This document shows, piece after piece, positions 6,614 to 56,727 of a DNA stretch of 64,000 nt. The stretch is from an uncultured Subdoligranulum sp. GTDB taxonomy: Bacteria > Bacillota > Clostridia > Christensenellales > CAG-314. Below the pieces are notes generated by a model. The model ran no database searches. It was not told the origin of the DNA and saw only the letters and a program-made list of their open reading frames with translations. Both the position numbers and the translations under genes were made by a program. The stretch covers positions 3,350 through 67,349 of the forward strand of contig CAZTCB010000004.1 in the NCBI GenBank assembly GCA_964612455.1, written 5' to 3'. Each line of letters starts with the position of its first letter. Position 1 is the first letter of the stretch.

Positions 6614-6691
6614 TTGCTGCTCCTTTGCGGTAATGTCCGCGAAATCGCCGAGTCGGACAGTGCCGTCGGCTTTATTTGGTAGTTTCTTTTT

Positions 6692-6720
6692 ATTATAATA
6701 CATGTAAACCCAAAAATCAA
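6692..6720 (-). promoter_or_regulatory. sigma-70-type promoter of the repeat-protein operon
   Basis: Minus strand reads TTGATT-17 nt-TATAAT. The -10 hexamer overlaps the ORF-track ATG at 6703, which argues for the downstream start at 6613. Confidence 0.55.
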
Positions 6721-10755: not shown

Positions 10756-10767
10756 GAGGAAAAATCG

Positions 10768-29900: not shown

Positions 29901-30746
29901 TCAATAAGTAAGCCTTAAACGGTCGAGTATGGTTCGATGTTCCTTGCCTGTCGATATGAGATATATTCTCGTTGTGTCGATATTTGAGTGACCGAGCACG
30001 TCGGACAATCTTATCAAATCGTGACATTGTTCGTAAAACGTTTTTGCAAACAGATGTCTGAGGTTGTGGGGATAGACTTTTGTTTCTTCTATCCCGGCAA
30101 ATTTGCTTGCTTTTTTCAACTCCCGCCACACGTGTCGGCGGTCCATAGGATTTTGTTCCCGAGTAATGAAAATATAGCCGTGCGTTATTTTGTTATCTTT
30201 GGCATATTCGAGCAATTGTTTGGACAGCGCGATAGGAAACAGGACGGTTCTGATTTTTCCTTTAAGGGTAATATCGGCTTTGCCTCTCAGTATGTTTTCT
30301 ATCGTGATAAACCTGAGTTCGGAGACGCGTATTCCCGTAGAACAAATGGTTTCTATAAGCAGTAGCAGTTTTTTGGTTTTCGGATTGCCTTTTAGCGCGT
30401 TTATTATTTTAGCGTATTCTCTTCGTGTCAAATCTTTGTTTTCATCGCGAAACAGCTGTCTTTAGACGACGAGATATTTTACTTTCCAAGCAAATCGGTT
30501 TTTATAAATAAAAAACTTGTTGATTGCGGCGAGATAACCGTTGATTGTACTCGGCGCAAATCGTTTTTTTATAAGGTATTTTTTCCATTCTATGGCTGTA
30601 TCCTTATCTGCCGCCCGTCCGTTTAAAAACTCAGAAAAAGCAGAAATATTGTTAACGTATTTTTCTACGGTCTTTATTCCGCGTTCTTCCGCTTTTAGTT
30701 TTTTTTCAAAACTCGTTAGTTCTTTTTGTGTCAAAAAAATTGCCAT
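29901..30746 (-). pseudogene. tyrosine recombinase/integrase interrupted by one in-frame TAA
   Basis: ORFs 30746-30462 (SAM-like N domain) and 30431-29901 (catalytic domain with GIRVSEL, HNLRH, GHSNIDTT, RIY) are in the same frame. They are separated only by TAA at 30462-30464. Read-through gives ...KYLVV*RQLFRDENKDLTRREY.... Strong RBS AAAGGAG. Confidence 0.8.
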
Positions 30747-31659: not shown

Positions 31660-31688
31660 TTGCCAAAAAGCGCGTTTTGATATATAAT
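31660..31688 (+). promoter_or_regulatory. sigma-70-type promoter of the MBL-shikimate operon
   Basis: TTGCCA-17 nt-TATAAT, about 74 nt upstream of ATG 31762 (RBS GAAGGAGG). Confidence 0.6.
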
Positions 31689-31761: not shown

Positions 31762-33090
31762 ATGGCAAATAAAAAATCCGACACAACTAAAAAAACAAAA
31801 TCCAAGTCAACTCAACGCAAGGAAATCGGTGCGTTTGCGGCAGGAGCGGTTGCCGCGGGAGCAGTTGCCGCCAAGGCCGCAAAAAAAGGAAAAAATAAAA
31901 AACAAAAAAAGAGAATTAATACCGTTGCGTTTATACTCGTGCTCATAGTTATCGTGTGCGGCGCCATGTACTACATGGATATTACGCCGTTTGATTTTGA
32001 AATAAGCGGAGATACCTTCAAGTTTTATACGTATACGCCTATTATTCCCGTCAGAGATATAGGAGATTTGCAACTGACGGATTTTCGTCTGCACGTCATC
32101 GACGTCAATCAGGGGGATTGTTTATTTCTTCAACTCCCCGACGGGAAAAACATGTTGATAGACGGTGCAAAAAAGAGCGATACGGTTGCCAACGGCATCA
32201 TAGAGTACCTTCTGTCCGATGTCAACGGCATTGCGGTCGACGGCAAAGTAGTCATAGATTACGTAGTGCTTTCACACACCGATGCTGACCATTGCGGCAG
32301 TCTTGACGACGTGATAAAGAGCGACAAAATCGACGTAAAAAGCGTCTATCGTCCGCTTGTTTTGTCGAGTTACTCGGGAGATCCGTTAAAGTCGTACATA
32401 TCGGCAAACAACCTCAGCTGTTCTACCATATCGACCACGGTGTACAAAGAGTTTGTTCAGGCGGTTGACGAAGAACAAGACTGTACTACGTATTACAACC
32501 TCGGCAGTCGTACGTTGCAGGGTGACGGGTATACCATGTATTTTTTCAACCCGACGATAGATATGTATCAGGATATCAAGTCCGCTCAGGATAAAAACAA
32601 CGTTTCGCCGATTATTATCCTCGACCTCGAGGTGGCAGGTAGAAAAATAGCACTGACGGGTGACGCCGATAAAGTGCAGGAAAATAATTTTATTGCGCAA
32701 CTTTCCGACAATGATTACGGCATAGATGCCGAGTTTTGCGACGTCGACGTGTTGAAAGTCGCCCATCACGGCGGAAAAGAGTCCACCAACAGCGAGTTTT
32801 TAAACGTGGTAAAACCCGAATACGCTCTGATAAGCGTCGGGGCAAAAAATACTTACGGTCATCCTACGCAGGAGACGTTGCAGCGCCTAGATAATATCGG
32901 TTGCAAGACGATATACCGCACCGACCAAAGCGGCAGCATCGTTCTTACCGTTACTTCGGACGGTAGTCTCGATTTCAGCGTGACCGGCGGCGTCGTGTCC
33001 GCGTCGGCGACCACTCGACTTTATCGTTACGACTTTTTTGCCGTGTATACAGGTCTCGTTAATTCGGCAAAACAATACATGGCTGCGTGA
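31762..33090 (+). CDS. membrane-anchored MBL-fold hydrolase, ComEC C-terminal-domain type
   Basis: 442 aa. Lys-rich N-terminus, one TM, then the metallo-beta-lactamase landmarks VIDVNQGDC, SHTDADHCG, GDAD, VAHHG, YGHP, as in the ComEC/Rec2 nuclease-like domain. No competence channel domain. Confidence 0.75.
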   Translation: MANKKSDTTKKTKSKSTQRKEIGAFAAGAVAAGAVAAKAAKKGKNKKQKKRINTVAFILVLIVIVCGAMYYMDITPFDFEISGDTFKFYTYTPIIPVRDIGDLQLTDFRLHVIDVNQGDCLFLQLPDGKNMLIDGAKKSDTVANGIIEYLLSDVNGIAVDGKVVIDYVVLSHTDADHCGSLDDVIKSDKIDVKSVYRPLVLSSYSGDPLKSYISANNLSCSTISTTVYKEFVQAVDEEQDCTTYYNLGSRTLQGDGYTMYFFNPTIDMYQDIKSAQDKNNVSPIIILDLEVAGRKIALTGDADKVQENNFIAQLSDNDYGIDAEFCDVDVLKVAHHGGKESTNSEFLNVVKPEYALISVGAKNTYGHPTQETLQRLDNIGCKTIYRTDQSGSIVLTVTSDGSLDFSVTGGVVSASATTRLYRYDFFAVYTGLVNSAKQYMAA

Positions 33091-33091
33091 T

Positions 33092-35059
33092 ATGCTCAAG
33101 TTTTTTGCAAAAGGTTTTTCGCACGGAAAGGGCTATTTGTGTACCGCCGTCGGTTTGCCGGACGGGTTTAAGATAGACGTCGCCGCCGTAGAACACCAGC
33201 TGTTTCGTCGTCGCGAAGGCGTGGGGCGCAGTCCGCGAATGAGTATTGAAAACGATAAAATCACCTTTTTGAGCGGACTTGACGGCGAAGGTCGTACTAA
33301 CGGCAGACCGTTAAAGTTTTTTATTGCCAACGCTGATGACGCCTTGGCTGAAAAACCACCCGTTACCGCATTGAGAAGCGGACATGCCGACCTCGTCGGT
33401 TGTGAAAAATACGGTCTTGACGACGCCCGATTGGTTTGCGAACTTTCGTCGGCGCGACGTACCGTTGCGTATACCGCATACGGAGCCATCTGCAGACAGA
33501 TGCTTGAAAAAGAGAATATATTTTTCGATTCGCGAGTTACGCAGATAGGCGGCGTAAAAACAGACGAATGCGACGATTTTGTTTCTCGTTGCGCAGCGGA
33601 AATACGTTCCGCCCGCGACGACGGTGACAGCCTCGGCGGTAAAGTAAAAGTGTTTTGTCGCGGGTTGAAAATCGGTCTCGGCAATATGATTGATTACGAA
33701 GGACGCTTTGACGGAATAATCGCGCATGCTTTGATGGGTATACCTTCCGTCAAAAGTGTGGAAATCGGACTCGGCTCGTCTTACGCGGATAAAAGAAACG
33801 GCGCTGTCGCCGACAAATTAATAGTAAACGACGGTAAAATAATATACGATACCAACAATTGCGGCGGTATAGTCGGCGGCTTGACGACAGGTAACGATAT
33901 AGAGGTTACGCTGACCGTCAAACCCGTTCCGACTACGAGGCAGGGAGTGGAGACGATAGACTCGATTACTAAAGAAAAAACGATTTCGCATTACGAGCGT
34001 AGCGACGTTTGCGTGGTGAACAACGTCGGCGTAATTGCCGAAAACGTGCTTGCCGCCACCGTTCTCGACGTTTTTCTTAAAAATAAAAATGCGTCTGTTC
34101 GTTACGAAAAGTTTGATAAAAATAATATAAAGGGCAACAAGGTTTTCGTAGTGGATGCGAGCGTTTTGCCGCTGATAGACGTTTCGGGCGAAAAGGTGTT
34201 TGCGATAAACGACGCGGAGAAAGAAAAAAACCTTTTTACCGTTGAAAAATTACTTAAGTTTTTTAACGACAACGGCTTAAATCGTACGGACAGTGTCGTT
34301 GCCGTAGGCGGCGGAGCATTGCTGGATACCGTCGGATTTGCAGCGGCGGTATTTAAGCGGGGGATAGGAGTTTGTTTTGTTCCGACTACTTTGCTGTCTA
34401 TGACGGACGCGGCGCATGGCGGAAAAAACGCGGTAAATTTCGACGGAATAAAAAACGTTGCGGGCACTTTTTATTTGCCAAAAACGGTAATTGTCGATTT
34501 CGATTTTTTAAACGGCGACTACGAGCGACTTAAACGAGAGGGTTTTGGCGAAATAGTCAAATGCGCCTTGCTCGACAACAAGGTGATGACCGAGATAAAA
34601 GCGTCCGCGGATTTAAAGAAACTCGTCAGACTTTGCGTCGAGTTTAAAAACGAAGTGGTCGAAAGAGATCCTACCGACTTGTTTTGGCGCAATCAACTCA
34701 ATCTCGGACATACTTTCGGTCACGCTTTTGAGCGAGTTTTCGGTTTGTCGCATGGCGAGGCGGTATTACAGGGATTGTATTACGAAACCATGCTTGCAAC
34801 CTTTATCGGCGAGACAGACGGTGATTTTTCAAAAAAAACACTTGATTTTTTGTCCGATTACGTAGTTCCGATACGAGTTACGCCTACCGACGTCGATAGA
34901 ATACTCGTGTTGTGCGCCGCCGACAAAAAAAACGAAAATCAGGAAATAACTTTTGTTTTTGCCGCACCGTATTTCGATTTTAATCCAAAAAGCGTTGATT
35001 TGTTTACGTTGAAGGAGTTTTTTTGCCAATGTCCGATACTTATGAGGAAAAAACTTTAA
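33092..35059 (+). CDS. aroC/aroB: fused chorismate synthase / 3-dehydroquinate synthase
   Basis: ATG 33092 is 1 nt after the MBL stop. First roughly 335 aa carry ELSSARRTVAYTAYGAI, GDSLGG, NNCGGIVGG, RSDVCVVNNVGVIAENVL (AroC). Last roughly 315 aa carry VAVGGGALLD, PTTLLSMTDAAHGGKNAVN, NLGHTFGHAFE, SHGEAV (AroB). No stop between the domains. Confidence 0.85.
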   Translation: MLKFFAKGFSHGKGYLCTAVGLPDGFKIDVAAVEHQLFRRREGVGRSPRMSIENDKITFLSGLDGEGRTNGRPLKFFIANADDALAEKPPVTALRSGHADLVGCEKYGLDDARLVCELSSARRTVAYTAYGAICRQMLEKENIFFDSRVTQIGGVKTDECDDFVSRCAAEIRSARDDGDSLGGKVKVFCRGLKIGLGNMIDYEGRFDGIIAHALMGIPSVKSVEIGLGSSYADKRNGAVADKLIVNDGKIIYDTNNCGGIVGGLTTGNDIEVTLTVKPVPTTRQGVETIDSITKEKTISHYERSDVCVVNNVGVIAENVLAATVLDVFLKNKNASVRYEKFDKNNIKGNKVFVVDASVLPLIDVSGEKVFAINDAEKEKNLFTVEKLLKFFNDNGLNRTDSVVAVGGGALLDTVGFAAAVFKRGIGVCFVPTTLLSMTDAAHGGKNAVNFDGIKNVAGTFYLPKTVIVDFDFLNGDYERLKREGFGEIVKCALLDNKVMTEIKASADLKKLVRLCVEFKNEVVERDPTDLFWRNQLNLGHTFGHAFERVFGLSHGEAVLQGLYYETMLATFIGETDGDFSKKTLDFLSDYVVPIRVTPTDVDRILVLCAADKKNENQEITFVFAAPYFDFNPKSVDLFTLKEFFCQCPILMRKKL

Positions 35060-37044
35060 AATATACCGATTTACCGTACGGCGACAAATCGATAACCCAC
35101 AGAGCGTTGATTTGCGCCGCATTGTCGGACGGAAAATGCACTCTGACCAATGCGGCATTCAACGCCGACACTTACGCTACGGTTGAGTGTCTTAACGCTT
35201 TAGGTGCGAAAATAACCTTGTGCGGCGGCGGAAAAATAGAAGTCCTTCCGATTAAAAAACCCAACGACGACGTGGTTTTAAACTGTTTAAACAGCGGTAC
35301 TACCGCGAGAATGCTTGCAGGCGTCGCGGTGGGGTTAAACGTACATGCCGTCTTTATCGGCGACGACAGTCTGACGTCTCGTCCTATGCAACGGATATTG
35401 ACGCCGCTTAACGCTATGGGCGGCAAAATAGAAAAAAAAGACGGCTGTTTATTTGAGGTTTTTAAACATGGCGATTTAAACGCGATAGATTTTGATATGC
35501 CTGTGCCTTCGGCGCAGGTAAAGAGCGCGATACTTTTTGCCGGGCTTTTTGCACGCGGAAAGACTACGGTGAGGGAAACGTTTCAAACCCGCAATCACAC
35601 CGAGATTATGCTCGGACGTTTTTCGGCGGATATAGTTTGCTCGGACGGAATGGTTTCGTTAAACGGCGGTTTGCCGCTCAAAGCGACGGACGTAGTTATT
35701 CCTGACGATTTTTCAACCGCTGCCGCTTTAATTGCCATGTATTCCGTTTCTCCGCGTGGTATTTCGATACGCGACGTAGGGCTTAATCCGACGCGTACGG
35801 CATTTTTGGACTGGCTGAGGGCAGGCGGTGCCGAGGTGCGTTTAACTAATATGCATGAAACCTGCGCAGGCGAGATATCGGGTGACGTATACGTCAACGC
35901 TTTTCGTTTAAAGGGCGCCGATTCGCCCTATGCGCTCAGCAACAAGATGATTGACGAAATCCCGTCGGCTTGTCTTTTGGCCGCCACGGCGCGCGGCAAC
36001 AGTCGATTTGAAGGTCTTTGCGAGCTTACCAAAAAAGAAAGCGATAGATTGACGGCAATCGAAAAACTGCTGAATTCTTACGGCGTAAAAACGAGCAGAA
36101 AAGGGGACGATTTGACCGTCTGCGGCGGAAGCCTGACGCCGTCGACGAATATGCCGTTTGATACCGACGATCATCGTATCGCTATGATGGATATCGCGGC
36201 AAGCAATATATGCGGCAAGGCTGTTGCGTCCGAAAATCGTCGTTGTATAGATGTGTCTTGTCCCAATTTTTTACAAATGTTAAATTTACCGTATCGCTGG
36301 GGATTGTTCGGCACGGACGTAAAAAACAGTCTGTCGCCGCTGCTTTACGAGTCCGTTTGTCGCGTTACGGGATTAAAAGCAGAGTACAATGTTTTCAACG
36401 TTTCGTCGGATGAGTTTTTAAAATGTTTTAAGAGCATCTTCAGTCGGTTAAACGGAGCAAATCTGACGATGCCGTTTAAAACCATGTTGACTGACGAGCA
36501 AACCCCGATCAATACCTTGTTAAATCTCAACGGAAATCCCGTTGCGTTCAATACCGACGGTTTCGGTTTGATTAACGCGCTGAAAGACGCCGAAATCGAC
36601 GTAAGAGGTAAAAAACTGCTCATACTCGGTTGCGGCGGCGCGGCAAAAGAAGCCGTCAGAGTGTTAAATGCCAACGGGGCGAAACTGACCGTTCGCAATC
36701 GGACAGAGAGTAAAATCGATGAAATGAAAAAACGATACGAGTTGCAACCCGACGACGGAAAGACGGCGTTTGACGGCATATTGTCTTTTTTGCCTTTTAC
36801 GAAAGGCTTGACGCTCGTGACGAAAGAAGAGTTAAACGCCTCCGAGTTTGCTTTTGACGCATGTTACGTAAAAAAAACACCGTTTTTTATCTATGCAAAA
36901 TCCGCTTGTCGTCGTGTCGTCGGCGGTGAAAGCATGCTGTTTTGGCAGGGGATAAAGAACTTTGAAATCTGGACCAACGAAACGCTCTCGCAGGAGCGGA
37001 TTTTGGCTGCTAAAGAAATATTTTTTAAGGAGATTTATAAATGA
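35029..37044 (+). CDS. aroA/aroE: fused EPSP synthase (class II type) / shikimate dehydrogenase
   Basis: First roughly 420 aa: GDKSITHRAL, LNSGTTARML, KESDRL, DDHRIAM (AroA). Last roughly 250 aa: SLSPLLYE, NLTMPFK, FNTDGFG, LGCGGAAKEA (AroE). The start overlaps the upstream gene by 31 nt. Confidence 0.85.
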   Translation: MSDTYEEKTLKYTDLPYGDKSITHRALICAALSDGKCTLTNAAFNADTYATVECLNALGAKITLCGGGKIEVLPIKKPNDDVVLNCLNSGTTARMLAGVAVGLNVHAVFIGDDSLTSRPMQRILTPLNAMGGKIEKKDGCLFEVFKHGDLNAIDFDMPVPSAQVKSAILFAGLFARGKTTVRETFQTRNHTEIMLGRFSADIVCSDGMVSLNGGLPLKATDVVIPDDFSTAAALIAMYSVSPRGISIRDVGLNPTRTAFLDWLRAGGAEVRLTNMHETCAGEISGDVYVNAFRLKGADSPYALSNKMIDEIPSACLLAATARGNSRFEGLCELTKKESDRLTAIEKLLNSYGVKTSRKGDDLTVCGGSLTPSTNMPFDTDDHRIAMMDIAASNICGKAVASENRRCIDVSCPNFLQMLNLPYRWGLFGTDVKNSLSPLLYESVCRVTGLKAEYNVFNVSSDEFLKCFKSIFSRLNGANLTMPFKTMLTDEQTPINTLLNLNGNPVAFNTDGFGLINALKDAEIDVRGKKLLILGCGGAAKEAVRVLNANGAKLTVRNRTESKIDEMKKRYELQPDDGKTAFDGILSFLPFTKGLTLVTKEELNASEFAFDACYVKKTPFFIYAKSACRRVVGGESMLFWQGIKNFEIWTNETLSQERILAAKEIFFKEIYK

Positions 37045-37469
37045 AAATCCTCGTAATCAACGGTCCGAATATGGATATGCTCGGCAGACGCAATCCGGAG
37101 CATTACGGCAAAATGACTTTGTCACAGCTAAACAAAGCCGTTGCGGATTACGCAAAAAAAAGAAAAGTAAAAATTCGTTTTTTTCAGTCTGACTGCGAAG
37201 GAAAAATCGTTTACAAGATTAATCACTGCGCATGCGACGCAATTTTGCTTAACGCTGCCGCATACAGCCATACGAGTATTGCATTAAGGGATGCGGTCGA
37301 GTGTTGCGGTAAAAAAACGGTGGAGGTTCATTTGTCGGACATCACGGCACGGGAGGATTTCAGAAAAATAAGGGTTTTGGACGGAGTCGTCGCGGCGTGT
37401 TTTTACGGCAAAGGAATAGAAAGTTATTTTGACGGCATAGATTTTTTGATTGCGGAGGAAAACGAATGA
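37041..37469 (+). CDS. aroQ: type II 3-dehydroquinate dehydratase
   Basis: 142 aa. ILVINGPNMDMLGRRNPEHYG, QSDCEG, NAAAYSHTSIALRDA, VEVHLSDI. Confidence 0.92.
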   Translation: MKILVINGPNMDMLGRRNPEHYGKMTLSQLNKAVADYAKKRKVKIRFFQSDCEGKIVYKINHCACDAILLNAAAYSHTSIALRDAVECCGKKTVEVHLSDITAREDFRKIRVLDGVVAACFYGKGIESYFDGIDFLIAEENE

Positions 37470-37978
37470 AAAGGAACGTTGCGTTGATAGGTATGTCGGG
37501 TACGTTAAAGACGTCGGTAGCACGTATTCTTGCCGACAAGTCGGACAAACGTTTCGTCGACACCGACGAACTCATCGTCTTTGAAAACGGTTTGTCAATC
37601 AACGAGATTTTTACGCGCGCGGGAGAAGAATACTTCAGGCGCATAGAGTCAAAAACAATACGAGCCGTTTCCGATTTTTTAGACGTCGTTATTTCGGTGG
37701 GCGGAGGCGCCGTGCTCGATAGCAACAATATGACTGCGCTGAGGCAAACAAGTACGGTGGTTTGTCTTACCGCAAGCAAAAGAGTTTTATACGAGCGATT
37801 GAAAAACGACCATACGCGTCCGTTACTTAACCCCGTTACTTATAAAAAAATTTCCGATTACGTCGACGAACGTAAGGGGCAGTACGAAAAATGGGCGGAT
37901 ATCACGGTTTCGACGAGCGGTAAAACCGCCATGCAGGTTGCCGAAGAAATAATAAATAAATTAAACAAAAAACAGTAG
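37466..37978 (+). CDS. aroK: shikimate kinase (non-canonical P-loop)
   Basis: 170 aa. DTDELI and SVGGGAV motifs fit AroK. Walker A reads GMSGTLKT (Leu where GK[ST] normally has Gly). Confidence 0.75.
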   Translation: MKRNVALIGMSGTLKTSVARILADKSDKRFVDTDELIVFENGLSINEIFTRAGEEYFRRIESKTIRAVSDFLDVVISVGGGAVLDSNNMTALRQTSTVVCLTASKRVLYERLKNDHTRPLLNPVTYKKISDYVDERKGQYEKWADITVSTSGKTAMQVAEEIINKLNKKQ

Positions 37979-38020: not shown

Positions 38021-38050
38021 AAAAAACTCCGCTTTTTAGCGGAGTTTTTT
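38021..38050. terminator. bidirectional rho-independent terminator
   Basis: AAAAAACTCCGC, loop TTTTTA, GCGGAGTTTTTT. Between convergent aroK (+) and the 996-aa gene (-). Confidence 0.8.
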
Positions 38051-38064
38051 ACAGTTTAATTTAT

Positions 38065-41055
38065 TTAACCTTGATAGTTGTTGACAACTTCTTCGGTATT
38101 CTTTTTGTGGGTAGACGCAAATTTTCTGATGATTATTGCGACAATAGCACCCAACATTGCGATGGTCACGACGAGAGAGGAGATAATCAACCAGTCTACA
38201 GGCTCTGTTTCTTCTGTGGTTTCCGTATCGTCATCGTCGGTTTCGGGGGAAAGAATAGTGGCAAGGTGAGTATTGAGCGTCTGAATGTCGTCACCGTTGT
38301 TTTCCCAATCGATGTAATAAGAGCCGTTTGTAGCGTCGGGATAGTGCTTTGCGTTAAACGTTGCCACCATCGTCTTAAGTGTCGCCATTTGCGCGTCAAA
38401 GTCGTCGTCAACGTTCTTTTTGAGTTCCGCAGCTTTCTCTACGATTTTATTAAAGTCGTTTTCCGTAGAGATATCGTTATAACGATAGTCTCTTACCGCG
38501 AGGTTGCTGTTGTTTGAAACAATCAGTTGCTCTTCGGCGTAAACGTTGTCGAGCTCGATATCGCCCGCCGTTTCGACATTGCCGTTTTTAAAGAGGTCAA
38601 AGTACTCTTTGCTGATCGTGTCGTTTTCTTCCGTAAGGTCCTCGAGAAGGGTACATTCGGCTCTGTCAAACAATACCGTCCCTTGTTGGTAGTCGATAGT
38701 TGTTTTTGCGTCGCGCTTGCCGTTCCACAGCTCGAGATTGACGGATACTTCGTTGTCGCCGGTGGCGAAGTAAATATAATAACGAACCCAACCGTCGCGG
38801 AGATCTTCGTCTACGGTTAAGAAAGAATTACTTACGTACGAAGAAGAAGAGCCGACAGTGAGGCTTGCGTATACTTCGGTTTTGCCGTCGGTGAGGTAGA
38901 TATGAGGTACCGCGCCGTCTACGCCTTTGGCAAGTACGCTGATGCGATAGAAGGAGTTAGCTGCAAGCGATATGGCGTCGGAACGATATCCGTGAGCGGT
39001 CGCCACGTTGTTGTAAATCATCAACAAAGAGTGGGCTTCGTCGTCCTTGTAGCCGTTAAAGTCTTGCTCGGTAATCCCGTATTTAAAGAGGTCGGAGGCT
39101 TGCGAACGATAAACGATGCCGCCGATACTGCTGTAAACGTCGTCGGGGTTTTCGTCGTTTGTCATGTCGTAAAACAACGCGCTCTTGTTGGGAGCGACTT
39201 TCGCCGCGTCGTAGTCGGAGGTAATCGTATTGAGACCTGCATACAGGCTAATCCAGTTGCCCGGCTCGACGGGGTAGTTTGTCGTAGGCGCGCTCGTCTT
39301 TATATTGTTAAAGCTTCCGTCCAACAAAAGTTCCGAAGGATTGGTCACCGTTTTCAACGACGCCGTTACGACGGAGGAAGAAGAGCTGACCGTAGTAAAA
39401 TTGTATTGGTCCAATTCCTCGAGCGAAAGTTCCGTCATATAAACGTTGCCCGTTACGGCAAACGATTCTTCGTTGGCAAACGTTTTCGTGGTAAACGCCA
39501 CACCGGAAGAATAGGTGGTAACTACGGATTTTCTTACGCCGACAGTGACCTGAATCTGTAAGTAATAAGTCGTGGTTTCGCTCGGTTGAATATAAAACTG
39601 ATATTGCGTCCAACCGTTGTTGGTGTCGTTAAGGATATCGTGAGAAGTATTTACGGACGCAAAATAAGCGGATATATTTTTGCCGAGAGTTTCGTCCAGT
39701 ACGAGATCTCCGTCGTCGTTGAGGTAGTAAGCGTTGAGATAGATGTAAGCGCCGCTACGCGGGTCGATGTCTTCCGTCCTTACCCAAACGGACGCGCGAT
39801 AACAACTGTTGATAGAGGGGGGAGTTACTTTAAACATGCCGAAATAAGCCGATTTATAATCGTTTTTCGCGGCTCTGTTAAGTTTGAGTATGTTTTCCGC
39901 CTCATCGTCGGCAAAAGGCATTACCAATTGCATGTCTTCGTCCTTGGTGATGTTTACGCTTTGAGCAGCCATTTTCATGTATTCGTCATGGCTCAACGTC
40001 GTCAAATCGCTCAGGTTTGCGGTTTCGTGAGTTGCGTAATCCCAATCTACGAGTTTAGAATTGGTCTCGTCGGTGTCGTAGGAGTAACTGACGTAGTTTT
40101 TGCTCGAGTCGAGCGTTTTTTGCTCGTTACGAATAAACTCGCCGTGGCTTATTGATTCGGTCGAAATCCAACCGAACATAATAAAACCGTATGCGGAAGA
40201 AGAGGATCTGCCGAGTCCCATTTCAAGGTAAGCGGTAGAAGAAGACGTCTTGGAGCCTTCGATATAAAAGTCAAACCTCGTCCAACCGTTGCTCTTGGCG
40301 TCGGCAGGAGCGTTGTTGATTGCGTCGGAAGTCACGTTGTATGTCACGAGATAGCTCGCGTCCGAAGTGCCTGTCTGACTCTTTTTGATAGCAACGTACG
40401 CACCGTCCTCGCCGACGATGTTTTTGGTATAAACCCACACGGAAACTTTCATGTACTTTCCGCTCGATATGGAAAAACTACTCGACATCACGCGCGTCGC
40501 GTCGGACTCCGCCGCGAGAGTCTTTTTTATCAGATATGCTCTCGTATCGTCGTCGTCTCTGCCTTCAAACTCGGGATAACCGGGTTGAGCCAGCTCGGCT
40601 TGTCCTTCAAGCGTACTGCTGACCACGACGCCTTTGGCTGTCAGGTCTTTGACCACGTTGCTCCAATCGGCAAGGTCTACCACGCCCATGGTGACGTTGC
40701 TCGGAGAAGAAGTAGTGGAGTAGCGCCACCCCATGCTACTGTCGATGGAGCTGTCCACCACCAACGGATAACTCAAATTTTTGCCGTTGGCAAAGGTGTT
40801 TGAAAAGTCAACGTTGGTAATCGTGGTGTCCGACGACGGATAAGAATTGCTGTCGGACGAGATAGTCGAAGGGATGACCTCAGTGTACGTAGCAACGCAC
40901 AGAGACGCCACCACCGCAACGACGAGCACCAAGCAAAGGATTAACGAAGTCCAAAGCTTTTTACGGAAAACGACGTTTTTAGCGGCAGACGCTTCCGCTT
41001 TGCCGCCTGCTTTGTAAGCCGGAGTGTAAAGTTTTTCATTCTGTTGTTTCTTCAT
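38065..41055 (-). CDS. large doubly membrane-anchored surface protein with three CBM4/9-like modules, unknown function
   Basis: 996 aa. AGGTGA RBS. TM at about residues 35-56 and about 955-977. Three internally homologous modules (VSVWVYT..GWTRFDFYIEGS; ASVWVRT..GWTQYQFYIQPS; RISVLAKG..GWVRYYIYFATG). Acidic linker ETDDDDTETTEETE before the C-terminal TM. Confidence 0.75.
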   Translation of the reverse strand: MKKQQNEKLYTPAYKAGGKAEASAAKNVVFRKKLWTSLILCLVLVVAVVASLCVATYTEVIPSTISSDSNSYPSSDTTITNVDFSNTFANGKNLSYPLVVDSSIDSSMGWRYSTTSSPSNVTMGVVDLADWSNVVKDLTAKGVVVSSTLEGQAELAQPGYPEFEGRDDDDTRAYLIKKTLAAESDATRVMSSSFSISSGKYMKVSVWVYTKNIVGEDGAYVAIKKSQTGTSDASYLVTYNVTSDAINNAPADAKSNGWTRFDFYIEGSKTSSSTAYLEMGLGRSSSSAYGFIMFGWISTESISHGEFIRNEQKTLDSSKNYVSYSYDTDETNSKLVDWDYATHETANLSDLTTLSHDEYMKMAAQSVNITKDEDMQLVMPFADDEAENILKLNRAAKNDYKSAYFGMFKVTPPSINSCYRASVWVRTEDIDPRSGAYIYLNAYYLNDDGDLVLDETLGKNISAYFASVNTSHDILNDTNNGWTQYQFYIQPSETTTYYLQIQVTVGVRKSVVTTYSSGVAFTTKTFANEESFAVTGNVYMTELSLEELDQYNFTTVSSSSSVVTASLKTVTNPSELLLDGSFNNIKTSAPTTNYPVEPGNWISLYAGLNTITSDYDAAKVAPNKSALFYDMTNDENPDDVYSSIGGIVYRSQASDLFKYGITEQDFNGYKDDEAHSLLMIYNNVATAHGYRSDAISLAANSFYRISVLAKGVDGAVPHIYLTDGKTEVYASLTVGSSSSYVSNSFLTVDEDLRDGWVRYYIYFATGDNEVSVNLELWNGKRDAKTTIDYQQGTVLFDRAECTLLEDLTEENDTISKEYFDLFKNGNVETAGDIELDNVYAEEQLIVSNNSNLAVRDYRYNDISTENDFNKIVEKAAELKKNVDDDFDAQMATLKTMVATFNAKHYPDATNGSYYIDWENNGDDIQTLNTHLATILSPETDDDDTETTEETEPVDWLIISSLVVTIAMLGAIVAIIIRKFASTHKKNTEEVVNNYQG

Positions 41056-42234: not shown

Positions 42235-43524
42235 TTGACAGGCATAAAGACAAAGACCTTTAAAAAGGGCGTTCATTTTGACGATAAAAAGTACTTGACC
42301 AAAGACGTTGCGATAGAGGAAATGCCCCTTATCGACGATTATTTCGTCGGTTTGTCTCAACATATAGGAGCGCCTGCCACGGCGTTGGTTGCCGCGGGCG
42401 ATACAGTGGCTGAGGGGCAGTTGATAGCAAGGGCGGGCGGTTTCGTTTCGGCAAACGTTTATTCTCCCGTCAGCGGTCAGGTCGTCGGTATAGAAAGGCG
42501 CGAAAACAAGTTTGGCGTTATGGCGGATTACGTTCATATACGTCGAGTCGAGGGCGAGGAGGTTACACTGCCGCCGATAGACGTTAACGACGGCAAAGCG
42601 ATAGCCGCTCGTATCGCGGAGGCGGGTATAGTCGGTCTTGGCGGAGCGGGTTTCCCCGCGCACGTCAAAGCCGCGCCGAAGAAACCCGTTGATTTACTTA
42701 TTATCAATGCCGCCGAGTGCGAACCGTATCTCAACTGCGACAACAGACTGTTGATAGAAAAACCTTACGAAGTCATAGCGGGTGCCAAACTCATAGCCAA
42801 GACGATCAACGTCGATACGATTATCGTCGGTATAGAGGAAAATAAACCGCGCGCTTACGAACATGTCTCTTCGAGTAGCGACGCGCATGTCGTTTTATTA
42901 AAAAAGAAATATCCGCAAGGCAGCGAGAAACAGCTCATTTACGCATGCTGCGGACGCAAAGTTCCGACCAAGGGGTTGCCTATGGACGTAGGCGTAGTGG
43001 TGCAAAACGTTGCGACGTGTTACGCCGTATACGAAGCGGTAATGTTAAATAAACCGCTGTACCAGCGCGTACTTACCGTCAGCGGATTGGGCGTAAACAA
43101 TCCCAAAAATCTCCTCGTAAAAATCGGTACGCCTTACAGCGCGATACTCGATTATTGCGGCGGCATCAAAGAAAACACCGTCAAACTCATTTCGGGCGGT
43201 CCCATGATGGGCGTCGCTATGGGTAACGCCAACGACGTTACCACCAAGACGGACAGCGGGTTGTTGGCGTTAGTCGAGGGCGAGGCAAACAGCGCTCAAC
43301 CGTCGGCTTGTATACGTTGCGGCAGGTGCGTTGCCGCTTGCCCGATGAATCTCATGCCTCTTTATATCGACTTTTACACACAGGCGGGAGATTATCACGA
43401 AGCAGTTAAATACGGGGTAGAGCACTGCATGGAGTGCGGTTGTTGCGCTTACGTCTGCCCCGGCAAACGACCGATAGTACAGAGCGTTAAACTCTGCAAG
43501 GCAAAACTAAGGGAGAAAAAATGA
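42235..43524 (+). CDS. rnfC: Rnf electron transport complex subunit C
   Basis: 429 aa, TTG start. GLGGAGFP NADH/FMN site. Two 4Fe-4S motifs CIRCGRCVAACP and CMECGCCAYVCP. Confidence 0.92.
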   Translation: MTGIKTKTFKKGVHFDDKKYLTKDVAIEEMPLIDDYFVGLSQHIGAPATALVAAGDTVAEGQLIARAGGFVSANVYSPVSGQVVGIERRENKFGVMADYVHIRRVEGEEVTLPPIDVNDGKAIAARIAEAGIVGLGGAGFPAHVKAAPKKPVDLLIINAAECEPYLNCDNRLLIEKPYEVIAGAKLIAKTINVDTIIVGIEENKPRAYEHVSSSSDAHVVLLKKKYPQGSEKQLIYACCGRKVPTKGLPMDVGVVVQNVATCYAVYEAVMLNKPLYQRVLTVSGLGVNNPKNLLVKIGTPYSAILDYCGGIKENTVKLISGGPMMGVAMGNANDVTTKTDSGLLALVEGEANSAQPSACIRCGRCVAACPMNLMPLYIDFYTQAGDYHEAVKYGVEHCMECGCCAYVCPGKRPIVQSVKLCKAKLREKK

Positions 43525-44504
43525 TGGAAAACAAGACTTTTTTAGACAGTAGTTCTCCTCACATTCGCGGAAAGTCAACGACGAAAAAAATAATGCTTGA
43601 CGTAATAATCGCTTTGTCAGCGCCTTTTTACGCGGGTTTGTGGTTTTTTGGTTTTCGTGCGTTGCTCGTGGTTTTTTTGGCGGTCGCTTCGGCATACCTG
43701 AGCGAAGTCGTTTTTAACCTTTGTTGCAAAAAAACACTCAGGGAGGCTCTCGATATCGACCTTACGAGTATCGTTACGGGATTTATCATAGGGCTGTCTC
43801 TCAATGCCAACGCCGCATGGTATTTGCCCGTAATGGCGAGTGTTTTCGCCGTTGTGGTGGTAAAAATGCTTTTCGGCGGCACGGGTAACAACATAGTCAA
43901 CCCGGCAATCGCGGGCAGAGGATTTATATTTATCTCGTTTATCGGCTCTTCCGCAAGCAATATGGCGAGCAATTGGACGACCACCGACGGCAACGTGCTT
44001 GCCGGTGCCACTCCGTTGAACGATATCTTAAACGGAATCGATCCCGGCATAACCAATCTCGATTTGTTTTTGGGTACCAACGTGGTCGGTTGTATCGGCG
44101 AGACATGCAAGATAGCGATAATAGTCGGTTTTCTTTACCTCGTGGTGAGGAGGGTAATTGATTTTAAATATCCTTTGATTTATATCGCGGTGACGGGATT
44201 GTTTACCGTGGCGTTGAAGGGATTTGATTTCAGCTGGTTTTTACCGAGTATTCTCGGCGGCGGTCTCATGTTTGTCGCCGTGTTTATGGCTACGGACTAC
44301 GTCACGAGTCCTACGACGAAACTCGGCAATTATATTTACTTTACGGCACTCGGTTTGCTGACGGCGGGATTGAGGGTTGCATGTAAAATGCCGATTATTA
44401 CTTTTGCCGTCTTGTTGATGAACTTCCTCGTTCCTTTTATCGACAAATTGGTGGTGCCGAAACCCTTCGGGTATCGACAGCCGGATAAGGAGGAGAAAGC
44501 ATGA
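43521..44504 (+). CDS. rnfD: Rnf complex subunit D
   Basis: 327 aa polytopic NqrB/RnfD family. SSPHIR N-terminus. AGATPL flavinylation-region motif. Confidence 0.9.
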   Translation: MMENKTFLDSSSPHIRGKSTTKKIMLDVIIALSAPFYAGLWFFGFRALLVVFLAVASAYLSEVVFNLCCKKTLREALDIDLTSIVTGFIIGLSLNANAAWYLPVMASVFAVVVVKMLFGGTGNNIVNPAIAGRGFIFISFIGSSASNMASNWTTTDGNVLAGATPLNDILNGIDPGITNLDLFLGTNVVGCIGETCKIAIIVGFLYLVVRRVIDFKYPLIYIAVTGLFTVALKGFDFSWFLPSILGGGLMFVAVFMATDYVTSPTTKLGNYIYFTALGLLTAGLRVACKMPIITFAVLLMNFLVPFIDKLVVPKPFGYRQPDKEEKA

Positions 44505-45097
44505 GCGTGAAAAAATATACCGAAAACAAGTCAACGGCGATTAAAGCGGTAGTGGTGCTCGTCTCGATAGCGGTGATACTCGGCGGTTTGTTGGCTGTAC
44601 TTAACGACTTGTTGTCCGTTTCGGACGACGAGCGAACGATGCGTATTATAAAGACGTTTTACGACGGACAAGAAAAAAACTTTACGGTCGTCGACGTATC
44701 GGAGGACTCGAAGACAAACGATTTCGGTACCGTCGATACGGTGTATTCGATAGAAGACGGCAGTTACCTTATAAAGACCACGGGAAAGGACGGTTTCCAC
44801 GGCGGTACGGTTTCGATGTGGTTTCTTGCAAAAGTTTCCGACGGAGAGTTTGTAGGTTTTACTAAAGTAAAATACGCCGACAACGACGGTCAGACGCTTA
44901 TGTCCAATTTTTCGGACGAGTATTACGACGATTATGTCGGTGACGGAGTAAAAAACGGCTTTTATTCGACGAAAAGCGGTGTCAACGTCAAGACTATGGC
45001 GGGCGCCACGTACAGTAGCAACGCCGTCAACAACGCCGTCAATTGCGCTTACGATTATATCCAAAATGTTTTGACGGAGGTAAGCCATGAAAGTTAA
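44501..45097 (+). CDS. rnfG: Rnf complex subunit G (FMN-binding)
   Basis: 198 aa. N-terminal TM. FMN-attachment motif AGATYSSNAV. Confidence 0.85.
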   Translation: MSVKKYTENKSTAIKAVVVLVSIAVILGGLLAVLNDLLSVSDDERTMRIIKTFYDGQEKNFTVVDVSEDSKTNDFGTVDTVYSIEDGSYLIKTTGKDGFHGGTVSMWFLAKVSDGEFVGFTKVKYADNDGQTLMSNFSDEYYDDYVGDGVKNGFYSTKSGVNVKTMAGATYSSNAVNNAVNCAYDYIQNVLTEVSHES

Positions 45098-45761
45098 AAA
45101 CATTGCTCTCGACGGACTCGTCCGTCAAAACCCCACTTTCAGACTCGTTCTCGGTACGTGCCCGACGTTGGCGTTGACTACTCTCGCGGTCAACGGCATA
45201 GGTATGGGACTTGCGGTTACGTTCGTTTTGATATGCAGCAACGTTTTAGTCAGTTTGTTGCGCAACGTTATACCGGATAAAATTCGTATACCGGCGTTTG
45301 TCCTCATTATTGCGAGTTTCGTTACCGTGGTTTCTCTTGTGCTTGACAAGTATATGCCGGATTTGTACGAAACCATGGGCGTTTACCTGCCGCTTATTGT
45401 CGTCAATTGCATTATTCTCGCGCGTGCGGAGTCTTTTGCCAGCCACAACAAGGTCGGTGCGGCGGCGTTGGACGGATTGTTTATGGGACTTGGATTTACC
45501 GTTGCTTTGACTCTGATGGGTATAGTGAGAGAGTTGTTGAGCAAGGGTAGTTTCTTCGGTATACGCCTTTGGGATTTCAGAATTGACTTTTTCGCGTCTG
45601 CCCCGGGAGCTTTTTTGACTTTCGGAATAATGATAGCGTTGTTTACCGTCGTTTACAATTCGGTAGAAAGAAAAGTTAAACGTAAAAATTTCGTCGGTAC
45701 GACGGCGTCGCAAAACGAGGAGCGACAAATTACGGCAGAGGAGGGCGCAAACAATGTCTAA
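45087..45761 (+). CDS. rnfE: Rnf complex subunit E
   Basis: 224 aa. LVLGTCPTLA and PLIVVNCIIL motifs of the NqrD/RnfE family. Confidence 0.9.
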   Translation: MKVKNIALDGLVRQNPTFRLVLGTCPTLALTTLAVNGIGMGLAVTFVLICSNVLVSLLRNVIPDKIRIPAFVLIIASFVTVVSLVLDKYMPDLYETMGVYLPLIVVNCIILARAESFASHNKVGAAALDGLFMGLGFTVALTLMGIVRELLSKGSFFGIRLWDFRIDFFASAPGAFLTFGIMIALFTVVYNSVERKVKRKNFVGTTASQNEERQITAEEGANNV

Positions 45762-46338
45762 TATTTTGATTATTATCGTCAGTGCCGTCTTCGTAAACAA
45801 CTTTGTCGTCGTTCAATTTTTGGGTATTTGTCCGTTTCTCGGCGTTTCCAAAAAGACCGAGTCTGCTTTCGGAATGGGCGTTGCCGTTACGTTTGTCATG
45901 ACGGTTGCGAGTCTCGTGTGTTATTGCTTGTACATGTACGTATTGGTTCCGCTCGGTATATCGTATCTGAGGACCATAGTATTTATTTTCGTTATAGCCA
46001 GTCTCGTCCAGATTCTCGAGATGGTGTTGAAAAAATTTGCTCCCGCATTGTATCGCTCTATGGGCGTGTATCTGCCGCTTATCACCACAAACTGCGCGAT
46101 ATTGGGCGTTGCGGAACTAAATCTTACTTCCTCGATGGTGACCAATGTGCTATCGGCAACGTTAAACGGATTTTTCAGCGGATTGGGCTTTTTGCTCGCT
46201 ATCGTACTGTTGTCGGGCGTGAGAGAAAAAGTCGACAAATTACCGATTGCAAAACCTCTTAAAGGTTTTCCCATTACTATGATTTGCGCGTGCTTTATGG
46301 CTATGGCGTTTTACGTATTCGGTACCGTTGCTTTATAG
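45754..46338 (+). CDS. rnfA: Rnf complex subunit A
   Basis: 194 aa. FLGICPFLGVS and PLITTNCAILG motifs of the NqrE/RnfA family. Confidence 0.9.
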   Translation: MSNILIIIVSAVFVNNFVVVQFLGICPFLGVSKKTESAFGMGVAVTFVMTVASLVCYCLYMYVLVPLGISYLRTIVFIFVIASLVQILEMVLKKFAPALYRSMGVYLPLITTNCAILGVAELNLTSSMVTNVLSATLNGFFSGLGFLLAIVLLSGVREKVDKLPIAKPLKGFPITMICACFMAMAFYVFGTVAL

Positions 46339-46350
46339 GAGACGAAAAAG

Positions 46351-47208
46351 ATGAATTGTTTAAATTTTATGTTTTTGGCGTCGACTTCCGTCGACTGGTC
46401 CAAGTTCTTTATCGTCATCGGTATAATGGCGGGGATCGGACTTGTTTTTGCTTTGCTTATAGTGCTTGTGTCTAAATATTGCGTCGTCAACGAAGATCCG
46501 AAGATTGCCGAAGTTTCAGCGCACCTTTGCGGTGCCAATTGCGGCGGGTGCGGTTATCCCGGGTGCGACGGATTTGCAAAAGCTTTGGTCGAAGGCAAAG
46601 TGTCTCTGGACGAGTGCGGTCAGACGACTAAAGAAAACAAGATAGAAATAAGCAATATTCTCGGCATATCTTACTCCGGCACGGGCGATACGATAGCCGT
46701 GGTGAGTTGCAACGGCGGTATAAACTGCAACGACAAGTATTCTTATCAAGGCTACGGCAGTTGCGTCAGTCAACAAATATTGGCAAACGGTCGTAAACAA
46801 TGCGCCGTAGGATGCATGGGTGCGGGCAGTTGCGTCGACGTTTGTCCCAATCTGGCGATAGAGTGCAGAGAGGGATATGCGCAAATAGATCCTGCTCTCT
46901 GCGTCAGTTGCGGTCTTTGCATTAAGGCTTGTCCGAAACGACTTATCAAGCGCATCCCCAAAGACGCCAAAGTTTACGTCGCTTGCAGTACTCAGTGCAA
47001 GGGGAGGGCTGTGGCGGATATGTGCAAGTCGGGCTGCATCAGTTGCGGTCTCTGCCAAAAGTTTTGCCCAAACGACGCCATTCATCTCGTCAACAACGTG
47101 CCTATCATAGATTATTCCAAGTGCAACGGTTGCGGAATATGTAAAGAAAAATGTCCTCGCAAGGTCATTAAGGATGTGTACGAGACAAAGGATTGCGTTT
47201 CGCAGTAA
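46351..47208 (+). CDS. rnfB: Rnf complex subunit B (polyferredoxin)
   Basis: 285 aa. N-terminal TM. CGGCGYPGC 4Fe-4S domain plus several CxxCxxCxxxCP ferredoxin motifs. Confidence 0.9.
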   Translation: MNCLNFMFLASTSVDWSKFFIVIGIMAGIGLVFALLIVLVSKYCVVNEDPKIAEVSAHLCGANCGGCGYPGCDGFAKALVEGKVSLDECGQTTKENKIEISNILGISYSGTGDTIAVVSCNGGINCNDKYSYQGYGSCVSQQILANGRKQCAVGCMGAGSCVDVCPNLAIECREGYAQIDPALCVSCGLCIKACPKRLIKRIPKDAKVYVACSTQCKGRAVADMCKSGCISCGLCQKFCPNDAIHLVNNVPIIDYSKCNGCGICKEKCPRKVIKDVYETKDCVSQ

Positions 47209-55812: not shown

Positions 55813-56727
55813 ATGGAAAGGATAAAAACGCCCGTACCGGACAACGTTGTGCTTGAAAACGAGCGTAGTCAGGGTGTTGACAAACAGGTTAACGAACTTT
55901 CGACGTACGGCTTTTTTAAATATATATACGCCAAGAGCATGTTTAAAATGTTTGGTTTAAATTTGCTTATGTGCGTTTTTTTGGCACCGCTCGTTTATTT
56001 GTACTACCGTTTTTTCATTCAGTCGTTGAGTGTAGCAAATACGATACCTTACAACGGTTCGTTAGGCGTCGGTTTTGCATTCTGGCAGGGTGCCGAGACG
56101 TACGCGACGCTGACGTCCAACTCGCTATTGTCGAGTTTTTGGCTTTGGGCTATACTCGGCATTTGCGCCGTTTCGTTTGCTTTTGCCGGCGGTATTTGCG
56201 TAATACGAAACGCGTTTTGGACGGGAGAGCTTAAGGTCAGTAAATACTTTTATAAGGGCATATATCAATGCGGCTTGATTGCTTTCGTCGGTTTTGCTCT
56301 CGTAGGAGGCGCGATTTGCGGTATCGTGCATTTAAACTTTGTCATGACGGAGTGGAGTAAATTTGCGTCCGTCGTGGTTAATATAGTACTTATTGCGGCT
56401 ACCGTTTTTTTGGCGATATTCGTGTTTGTGCTTACAAGCGTGATGTCGACGTACAAACAATCTCTCGGGGTTTCTATAAAAACTTCGATTGCTATCATTA
56501 AAAAATATTTTATATCGACAGTACTCAATTTTATTATCGCGCTTATTCCCATCGTGTTGGTGTTGTGGCTTTCGAGCTCTATGCTTGCGGTAATAATCAT
56601 CATACTTTGTTTAATGATAGGTATGTATTACGTCGTATTGGTATGGCAGACGCATATGATGAAGATTTTTTCCATCTATCATCCGGTAGAAAAGATAGTC
56701 GTAAAGCGTAAAAAACAAATCAAATAG
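55813..56727 (+). CDS. polytopic membrane protein, possibly DUF624/YesL-like
   Basis: 304 aa. N-terminal FFKYIYAKSMFKMFGLNLLMCVFLAPLV resembles the YesL-family start. About 6 TM. Weak assignment. Confidence 0.6.
   Translation: MERIKTPVPDNVVLENERSQGVDKQVNELSTYGFFKYIYAKSMFKMFGLNLLMCVFLAPLVYLYYRFFIQSLSVANTIPYNGSLGVGFAFWQGAETYATLTSNSLLSSFWLWAILGICAVSFAFAGGICVIRNAFWTGELKVSKYFYKGIYQCGLIAFVGFALVGGAICGIVHLNFVMTEWSKFASVVVNIVLIAATVFLAIFVFVLTSVMSTYKQSLGVSIKTSIAIIKKYFISTVLNFIIALIPIVLVLWLSSSMLAVIIIILCLMIGMYYVVLVWQTHMMKIFSIYHPVEKIVVKRKKQIK

Follow-up and report, generated by a model that had tools for sequence, protein, structure and literature searches.

Can six steps of the shikimate pathway be carried by four genes, and are the two gene fusions in such an arrangement genuine, functional and explicable? 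This question is raised by a locus of shikimate pathway (aro) genes on contig CAZTCB010000004.1 of an uncultured Subdoligranulum sp. (assembly GCA_964612455.1), from which a stretch of 64,000 nucleotides (positions 3,350 to 67,349; referred to here as the window) was analyzed. A preceding reading of the letters and their open reading frames (ORFs), made without database searches and called the sequence-only reading below, had described a compact operon in which aroC is fused to aroB and aroA to aroE. All ORFs, coordinates and motifs quoted there, as well as the four-gene layout, were found as described. Steps 2 to 7 are encoded by four co-directional ORFs in the window (lengths in amino acids, aa):

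33092..35059, + strand: aroC-aroB fusion gene (655 aa), chorismate synthase (step 7) and 3-dehydroquinate synthase (DHQS, step 2)
35029..37044, + strand: aroA-aroE fusion gene (671 aa), class II EPSP synthase (EPSPS, step 6) and shikimate dehydrogenase (SDH, step 4)
37041..37469, + strand: aroQ, type II 3-dehydroquinate dehydratase (step 3), with Pfam and NCBIfam matches
37466..37978, + strand: aroK, shikimate kinase (step 5), with a Pfam SKI match

The overlap is 31 nt between aroC-aroB and aroA-aroE and 4 nt (ATGA) each between aroA-aroE and aroQ and between aroQ and aroK, and the four genes read as a translationally coupled operon. The locus is most probably (with a probability of roughly 0.8) a functional shikimate operon that covers steps 2 to 7 in an uncultured Christensenellales bacterium, and in which the two bifunctional genes would have arisen by fusion of operon neighbours.

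The domain matches in Pfam and NCBIfam bear out both fusions. The four fused domains are located as follows:

33092..34093, + strand: chorismate synthase domain, residues 1-334 (GFSHG 8-12, GHAD 97-100, SARRT 120-124, RSD 303-305)
34094..35056, + strand: short-type 3-dehydroquinate synthase domain, residues 335-655
35029..36279, + strand: EPSP synthase domain, residues 1-417 (GDKS 18-21, NSGTTAR 88-94, SAQVK 161-165, RNHTE 188-192, NPTR 253-256, KESDR 336-340, DHR 381-383)
36280..37041, + strand: short linker (about LNLPYR) and shikimate dehydrogenase domain, the latter at residues ~424-671

The first half of the AroC-AroB protein is matched by Pfam Chorismate_synt (PF01264) at residues 3-329 with an E-value of 8e-78 and 261.8 bits (cut-off 27), spanning profile positions 2-327 of 327, and by TIGR00033 aroC with 263.6 bits, above the cut-off of 212.2. 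Its fold matches the structures 2o12 and 1qxo with a TM(target) of 0.79-0.80. The protein has the residues H11 (nearly invariant), H98, R40, R41, R46, R49, R122 and D305, which vary little or not at all in the alignment of the fused family; their active-site roles are presumably those seen in the S. pneumoniae structure. The N-terminal signature G-[DES]-S-H-G was not matched. The window has GFSHG, which the sequence-only reading had rightly called atypical, since 155 of 171 chorismate synthase homologues have GESHG. The position of the Glu is occupied by T in the sister clade (GTSHG in unfused relatives) and by F, Y, L, A or K in the clade of the window. The Glu thus appears to have been lost lineage-wide and not specifically in the fusion, which argues against a fusion-specific loss of function.

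In the second half, DHQ_synthase (PF01761) was found at residues 370-475 (E-value 1e-33, 115.6 bits) and DHQS_C (PF24621) at residues 484-614 (1e-24, 87.6 bits), both passing their cut-offs, and aroB was the best-scoring cyclase family. No variation was seen in the fused family at G406-G408, D412, T432-T433, D439, K445, N455, E487, K490, K519, R533, N537, H540, H544 and H554. We take the roles of these motifs (NAD-binding GGG..D and TTLL; Glu, His and His as metal ligands; Lys, Asn and Arg for phosphate and substrate) to be those of the A. nidulans DHQS structure. The junction, estimated beforehand at about 34100, lies at about nt 34088-34099 and is essentially linker-less (FLKNKNAS followed directly by VRYEKF). 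Free-standing DHQS proteins of 306-322 aa align from their own residue 2 onto residues 335-338 of the query. Since they share this start, the short N-terminus of the domain is older than the fusion. The AlphaFold2 model of AroC-AroB has a pLDDT of 95.4 and a pTM of 0.92; every solved structure covers only one half of it (query-normalised TM no higher than 0.48).

The first half of the AroA-AroE protein matches Pfam EPSP_synthase (PF00275) at residues 18-417 with an E-value of 1e-71 and 242 bits. Its closest relatives in the PDB are class II enzymes (3roi, 3rmt, 1rf4 and 2gg4, from Coxiella, Bacillus halodurans, S. pneumoniae and Agrobacterium CP4) with 168-223 bits, whereas the class I enzyme of E. 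coli (1g6s) reached 48.6 bits, in agreement with the class II assignment made from the motifs. The motifs RxHxE, GDKx, SAQxK and NxTR, which we take to define class II, are present as RNHTE, GDKS, SAQVK and NPTR, and most of their positions are invariant in the alignment of the fused AroA-AroE family. The catalytic residues K20, R25, S161-Q163, D309, E337, R340 and H382-R383 are present and almost all invariant.

For the SDH half, Shikimate_dh_N (PF08501) was identified at residues 426-486 with an E-value of 3e-11 and 44 bits (cut-off 27), covering only profile positions 1-62 of 83. Shikimate_DH (PF01488) with 23.8 bits (cut-off 24.3) and SDH_C (PF18317) with 22.9 bits (cut-off 25.8) both fell slightly short. 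The best PDB relatives of this half are genuine shikimate dehydrogenases (2hk9, 93 bits). Its motifs comprise S434/S436, NLTMPFK with K484, NTD with D510, GCGGAA (534-539), NRT (557-559) and Q640. The 36 fused sequences show no variation at K484, D510, S434, S436, N478, T480, Q640, G534, G536 and N557, and very little at R558 and T559. The roles of these residues (Lys/Asp dyad, substrate-binding Ser-x-Ser, Asn, Thr and Gln, NADP-type NRT) are assumed to be those of E. coli AroE. A deletion of about 10 residues is found just past the catalytic K484. The junction was located at about nt 36280-36300 (previous estimate about 36285), and the AlphaFold2 model of the whole protein has a pLDDT of 91.5 and a pTM of 0.91.

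The two remaining steps are assigned to single-domain proteins. AroQ matches Pfam DHquinase_II with an E-value of 2e-45 and NF003805 with 151 bits, above the cut-off of 146. AroK matches Pfam SKI (PF01202) with an E-value of 6e-38 and 130.8 bits. The canonical Walker A motif GxxxxGK[ST] was not matched in AroK, where residues 9-16 (37490-37513) read GMSGTLKT; the other shikimate kinase motifs (DTD, R58, GGG and R118) are intact. The altered position is Leu or Phe in 12 of 12 relatives from the double-fusion clade and Tyr in most of the sister clade. It is Gly in the loci L009 and L013 and, without exception, in the 83 more distantly related homologues where the motif could be located.

Both fusions are genuine genes and not assembly errors. 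Proteins identical to the 655-aa and 671-aa products are recorded in both NCBI and Logan, where they lie on a contig of 67.6 kb. An independent assembly (L083, from SRR10277276) that is 98% identical is colinear with the window over 6,217 nt spanning the operon, with 100 substitutions and no indel, which provides the support across the junctions that the sequence-only reading had asked for. Between the two, dN/dS amounts to 0.13-0.33 in each of the six domains. In a search of 5.8 billion proteins the AroC-AroB architecture was found in 14 clusters (at 90% identity) with 45-99% identity to the window protein, and the AroA-AroE architecture in 35 such clusters with 35-97% identity; many of the clusters are represented on several independent contigs. 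The presumed catalytic and ligand-binding residues of all four fused domains are present, and nearly all of them are invariant in the fused families. A single-base assembly or sequencing error that merged neighbours of a genome with six separate genes has a negligible chance of being the explanation. One indel error would suffice for an apparent fusion, since the aroC stop overlaps the aroB start in unfused relatives, and the database protein P0074 is clearly an artefact of this sort. Against such an error stand the identical in-frame junctions in the independent assembly at 98% nucleotide identity, the fused junctions in the species-level-distinct genomes L001-L006 (46-70% identity) and in hundreds of cluster members from different samples, and the conservation of the junction residues themselves.

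Two groups of candidate fusions from the database searches were rejected. P0074 (867 aa), an apparent AroC-SKI-DHQS protein, is most likely a frameshifted gene call on a high-GC contig with Arg- and Pro-rich nonsense between conserved blocks. ORF analysis of the tblastn matches from Chloroflexota, Actinomycetota, Thermaceae and others, which apparently extended over query residues 1-623, revealed no fusions but neighbouring aroC, aroK and aroB genes that tblastn had linked.

Gut metagenome-assembled genomes (MAGs) are the nearest genome records; they carry the labels "Clostridiales bacterium", "uncultured Subdoligranulum sp." and "Subdoligranulum sp. CAG:314", and one fused homologue is labelled "Christensenellales bacterium" by NCBI. 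According to GTDB, the family CAG-314 sits in the order Christensenellales (PMC8035907). The closest species-representative genome shows at most 70% protein identity in the aro operon.

For the reconstruction of the origin of the fusions, ORFs were called in 80 fetched loci and the six aro domains were mapped onto them. One locus (L009) carries six separate genes in the order aroC-aroB-aroA-aroE-aroQ-aroK. In L008, L011-L014 and L081 AroA-AroE is fused and aroC and aroB are separate, and L001-L006, L083 and the window have both fusions. In a bootstrapped neighbour-joining tree of the six concatenated domains the fusion states appear as nested clades with 85-100% bootstrap. The double-fusion genomes form one clade (85%), which is sister to L009 and the single-fusion genomes (89%).

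The stop of aroC overlaps the start of aroB as TGATG in L008 and as GTGA in L009. The free AroB begins with MITYRKF (L008) or VNVIFKEF, and the fused counterpart VRYEKF follows directly on the AroC C-terminus with no linker added. A one-base change would be enough for a fusion of the AroC-AroB type. The AroA-AroE linker consists of about five residues and aligns between both clades (..PNFLQMLNLPYRWGL.. versus ..PEFSEAFGIRPLKLGL..), which favours a single, old AroA-AroE fusion.

The comparison of these genomes shows how the fusions came about. The ancestor carried the six-gene operon aroC-aroB-aroA-aroE-aroQ-aroK, in which stops overlapped or directly preceded the next starts, and small indels or the loss of a stop codon sufficed to join neighbours in frame. 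AroA and AroE would have fused first, in an event shared with the sister clade, and AroC and AroB later, at the base of the clade of the window. The pairings of steps 7 and 2 and of steps 6 and 4 thus follow gene order and not reaction order, since operon neighbours fused in their ancestral order.

The rarity of the two pairings was assessed with a HMMER search of 1.84 billion cluster representatives, in which the best 150 matches were listed. Among these, three proteins have AroC followed by AroB; two are from the clade of the window and one, with 32% identity and independent, is from a Kiritimatiellia MAG. The Kiritimatiellia operon (P0249/L084, 6001-9353) consists of tyrA, aroC-aroB (630 aa) and aroK-aroA (487 aa). 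The same 150 matches also contain one protein of the reverse order, AroB followed by AroC (P0290/L085, 6001-9365; 703 aa), which lies next to AroE-AroK (415 aa) and a chorismate mutase, and one AroC-AroK fusion (P0361). The search for AroA-AroE homologues yielded an AroA-AroE-AroK protein (L082, 6001-8643; 880 aa), after which come aroB, aroC and a DAHP synthase of type II. Fusion of shikimate operon neighbours is recurrent and each combination is rare, AroC-AroB very much so. In these sequences AroC and AroB became joined on no fewer than two independent occasions and, in reverse order, on one more.

The sequence-only reading did not recognise either pairing, which is in line with their rarity. 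The only bifunctional NCBIfam models matched were those for AroK/AroB, dehydroquinase (DHQase)/SDH, prephenate dehydrogenase/EPSPS and EPSPS/Cmk, none of which names either pairing of the window, and NCBI names the fused proteins by one domain only ("chorismate synthase" or "3-phosphoshikimate 1-carboxyvinyltransferase"). No description of an AroC-AroB or AroA-AroE pairing was found in the literature searched. An older study entitled "Dehydroquinate synthase in Bacillus subtilis" (Hasan and Nester, 1978, J Biol Chem 253:4999) stands as reference 85 in the reference section of PMC9137983.

One of the closest parallels comes from a Firmicute, where a physical link reportedly joins the enzymes of these steps, 7 and 2. 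The DHQS of B. subtilis reportedly co-purifies with chorismate synthase and an NADPH-flavin reductase, and is said to be active only when bound to chorismate synthase. The gene order of B. subtilis is presumably aroF-aroB-aroH, in which the chorismate synthase gene is followed by the adjacent DHQS gene, as in the window. The B. subtilis complex is non-covalent, consists of separate polypeptides and includes the flavin reductase, whereas the window encodes a single 655-aa chain that has neither a linker nor a reductase domain. In the light of this 1978 report, the joining of the last enzyme to the second looks less strange.

The eukaryotic AROM/Aro1 proteins (PDB 6hqv, 7u5s) also unite several shikimate enzymes in one chain. 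Their DHQS, EPSPS and SDH domains are homologous to those of the window, and both fusion proteins match AROM chains one domain at a time. AROM is one chain of the order DHQS-EPSPS-SK-DHQase (type I)-SDH without chorismate synthase, whereas the window has two chains (chorismate synthase-DHQS and EPSPS-SDH) and leaves the type II DHQase and the kinase free. The fusions of AROM and of the window arose independently.

The curated bacterial bifunctional aro proteins, namely AroK/AroB (PRK13951, PRK14021), DHQase/SDH (PRK09310), prephenate dehydrogenase/EPSPS (PRK14806), EPSPS/cytidylate kinase (PRK11860) and chorismate mutase-SDH (PDB 3fbt), represent the same kind of event, in which neighbouring genes of the aromatic pathway were fused. 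None of them combines chorismate synthase with DHQS or EPSPS with SDH, and the similarity of the window proteins to each model is confined to the corresponding half and lies far under the cut-offs. The fusions in L084, L085/L086, L082 and P0361 resemble the window in that adjacent aro genes are joined in compact operons and in that the AroC-AroB and AroA-AroE pairings recur; they differ in lineage (32% and 31% identity to the window proteins), context and junctions, and are independent events. The joining of shikimate genes that are operon neighbours is an ordinary kind of evolutionary event, and the two pairings of the window are real, conserved and rare.

If the operon is functional as proposed, each domain would keep its own active site and work as a normal enzyme. 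Since the fused steps (7 and 2, 6 and 4) are non-consecutive, no intermediate would be passed between the partners. The likely benefit would be a fixed 1:1 expression together with the stabilization of a pre-existing protein-protein association, for which the reported pairing of DHQS with chorismate synthase in B. subtilis provides a precedent in the case of AroC-AroB. Each fusion is predicted to be a rigid two-domain body with defined inter-domain packing, given the pTM of 0.91-0.92 for two-domain chains.

Several observations weigh against this picture. The AroB equivalog TIGR01357 was matched with 244.7 bits, under its cut-off of 305, and the match begins at profile position 52 because the DHQS N-terminus is short. 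TIGR01356 aroA reached 272.9 bits, just under its cut-off of 287.25, TIGR00507 aroE 115.7 bits (cut-off 200) and the NCBIfam equivalog for aroK 136 bits (cut-off 204). The chorismate synthase lacks the usual Glu of GESHG, and in the P-loop of AroK a Leu replaces the near-invariant Gly before the Lys. The kinase activity of step 5 is not assured with such a P-loop. The locus L009 groups with the sister clade that carries the AroA-AroE fusion (89% bootstrap), which makes the order of the AroA-AroE events ambiguous: its position could mean that a single fusion was later undone in L009 or that the two genes fused twice independently. The AlphaFold2 alignments behind the predicted rigid packing contained few fused sequences, 11 for AroC-AroB and 36 for AroA-AroE.

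The low equivalog scores of the DHQS, SDH and EPSPS halves, the shortened DHQS N-terminus, the SDH deletion after the catalytic Lys and the GFSHG motif would also be expected if one half of one or both fusions were catalytically dead and served a structural or regulatory role, or had another activity (acting, for example, as a different sugar-phosphate cyclase, as a quinate dehydrogenase or as some other dehydrogenase), with the missing step supplied by a gene elsewhere. An inactive domain within a multi-enzyme has a precedent in Candida albicans Aro1, according to PMC9074039. This explanation is very improbable: the catalytic residues of DHQS, SDH, EPSPS and chorismate synthase that could be mapped are present and almost all invariant, the shortened DHQS is also free-standing in unfused relatives, dN/dS is below 0.35 in each half, and the operon otherwise holds exactly one gene per step. 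A different alternative concerns the reason for the fusions and not their activity. AroC-AroB, AroA-AroE, AroQ and AroK might form an AROM-like multi-enzyme assembly in which the fusions were selected for complex formation or channelling rather than for co-expression alone. The reported association of DHQS with chorismate synthase as well as a flavin reductase in B. subtilis would fit such an assembly, as would the joining of AroC and AroB at least three times (in the clade of the window, in Kiritimatiellia and in reverse order in P0290/L085) and the fixed inter-domain packing implied by the pTM values. However, a fusion of non-consecutive steps cannot itself channel an intermediate, the domain order and content are unlike those of AROM (B-A-K-D-E with a type I dehydroquinase), and other lineages fuse other neighbours (K-A, E-K, C-K and A-E-K), as an opportunistic joining of adjacent genes predicts. 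We consider the assembly quite unlikely. The bacterial AROM-like assembly put forward as a possibility in the sequence-only reading finds no support, given these differences and the separate dehydroquinase of type II, and the pairings themselves are explained by an ancestral gene order that is still unfused in L009. Its other suggestion, stoichiometric co-expression, is closer to the evidence.

Compared with opportunistic fusion of operon neighbours, a more specific origin of AroC-AroB can be envisaged. The protein could be the covalent form of an obligate partnership of chorismate synthase and DHQS that is widespread in Firmicutes and was seen in the 1978 B. subtilis complex. The repeated independent joining of AroC and AroB and the rigid predicted interface are compatible with a real functional partnership; we regard the obligate and widespread form as doubtful. 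If it existed, the linker-less interface would show a physical, perhaps allosteric, coupling of the first committed cyclisation and the last step, and AroC-AroB together with AroA-AroE, AroQ and the kinase with the altered P-loop could form a bacterial shikimate metabolon.

The expression signals and flanks of the fused operon comprise the following further features:

31660..31688, + strand: sigma-70-like promoter candidate, TTGCCA-17-TATAAT, with 11 of 12 consensus matches, 5' of the MBL-fold gene
31762..33090, + strand: MBL-fold gene, ComEC C-terminal-like, matching Pfam Lactamase_B, with a Lys-rich N-terminal region and a likely membrane segment
35012..35017, + strand: Shine-Dalgarno sequence AAGGAG of aroA-aroE, within the 3' end of aroC-aroB
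38021..38050, no strand assigned: GC-rich hairpin with a 13-bp stem between A-runs and T-runs, after aroK
38065-41055, - strand: gene of a 996-aa Ser/Thr-rich protein with hydrophobic segments at the N- and C-terminus, convergent with the aro operon

A GGAG or GAGGA sequence followed by a T-rich spacer and ATG is also present ahead of aroA-aroE in L001, L002, L003 and L005. A programmed -1 frameshift at the T7 run 35018-35024, which lies close to this start and would give a four-domain protein from the 31-nt overlap, was considered and rejected, as no conserved slippery heptamer was found. The T5-T7 runs of the relatives encode a conserved C-terminus (..EFF..) and constitute the spacer between the conserved Shine-Dalgarno sequence and the ATG.

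The MBL-fold gene ends 1 nt ahead of the aroC-aroB ATG and is therefore probably co-transcribed with the aro genes. Its product matches NCBIfam ComEC_Rec2 in the C-terminal part only, with 82.6 bits and under the cut-off. It is the upstream neighbour of aroC also in L001, L081 and L083 and was kept across the whole group. Judged from its consensus match, the promoter candidate may mark the start of the transcription unit. The hairpin is likely a bidirectional intrinsic terminator that closes the aro operon and the convergent 996-aa gene. For the 996-aa protein no Pfam match was found, and the sole match was a faint one to the NCBIfam "phage head spike fiber"; the gene is retained as a neighbour in L001 (960 aa), L081 (835 aa) and L083 (997 aa). 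The Rfam scan of the window gave zero matches, and hence no T-box or other leader was detected.

As the sequence-only reading had noted for step 1, no match to a DAHP synthase family was found in the Pfam scan of all plausible window ORFs of at least 200 aa, from which five such ORFs that overlap longer genes and were deemed spurious had been left out. The enzyme must be encoded elsewhere in the genome. The flanking housekeeping genes comprise lepA, ligA, priA, def, fmt, an rnf operon, dnaG, rpoD and valS. The cluster for the rnf-type ion-translocating ferredoxin:NAD+ oxidoreductase (42235-47208, + strand) includes RnfC, RnfD, an Rnf-Nqr membrane subunit and an RnfB-like Fe-S subunit; rnf genes also adjoin the aro locus in L001. 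The cluster is consistent with the anaerobic lifestyle of Clostridia.

A gene for a XerC/D-like tyrosine recombinase (29901-30746, - strand) is broken by a single nonsense codon, TAA, at 30462-30464. L083 (98% identical) has CAA at this codon and encodes a 281-aa protein that is otherwise identical, and the interrupted gene is either a very recent pseudogene or the result of a sequencing error. The GC content falls to 0.40 over 30-32 kb. Four sizeable ORFs (675, 293, 320 and 304 aa) in 4676-6703 (- strand), 9874-11730 (+ strand) and 55813-56727 (+ strand) had no Pfam match at an E-value of at most 1e-4.

The naming of the fused proteins by a single domain has consequences for the annotation of these bacteria. 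Automated pathway reconstruction would wrongly report aroB and aroE as missing in gut Christensenellales and call an auxotrophy for aromatic amino acids. This misannotation bears on metabolic models of the gut microbiome and on surveys of glyphosate sensitivity, which depend on the EPSPS class and the completeness of the pathway. As compact natural bifunctional enzymes, the two proteins are possible parts for engineered pathways to aromatic compounds. The recurrence of AroC-AroB is evidence of the Rosetta-stone kind that chorismate synthase and DHQS are functionally linked, and the fusion would make this link tractable as a single recombinant protein. Within one order, the locus represents a stepwise series from six to five to four genes, merging via overlapping stop and start codons, and the nested fusions could serve as clade markers.

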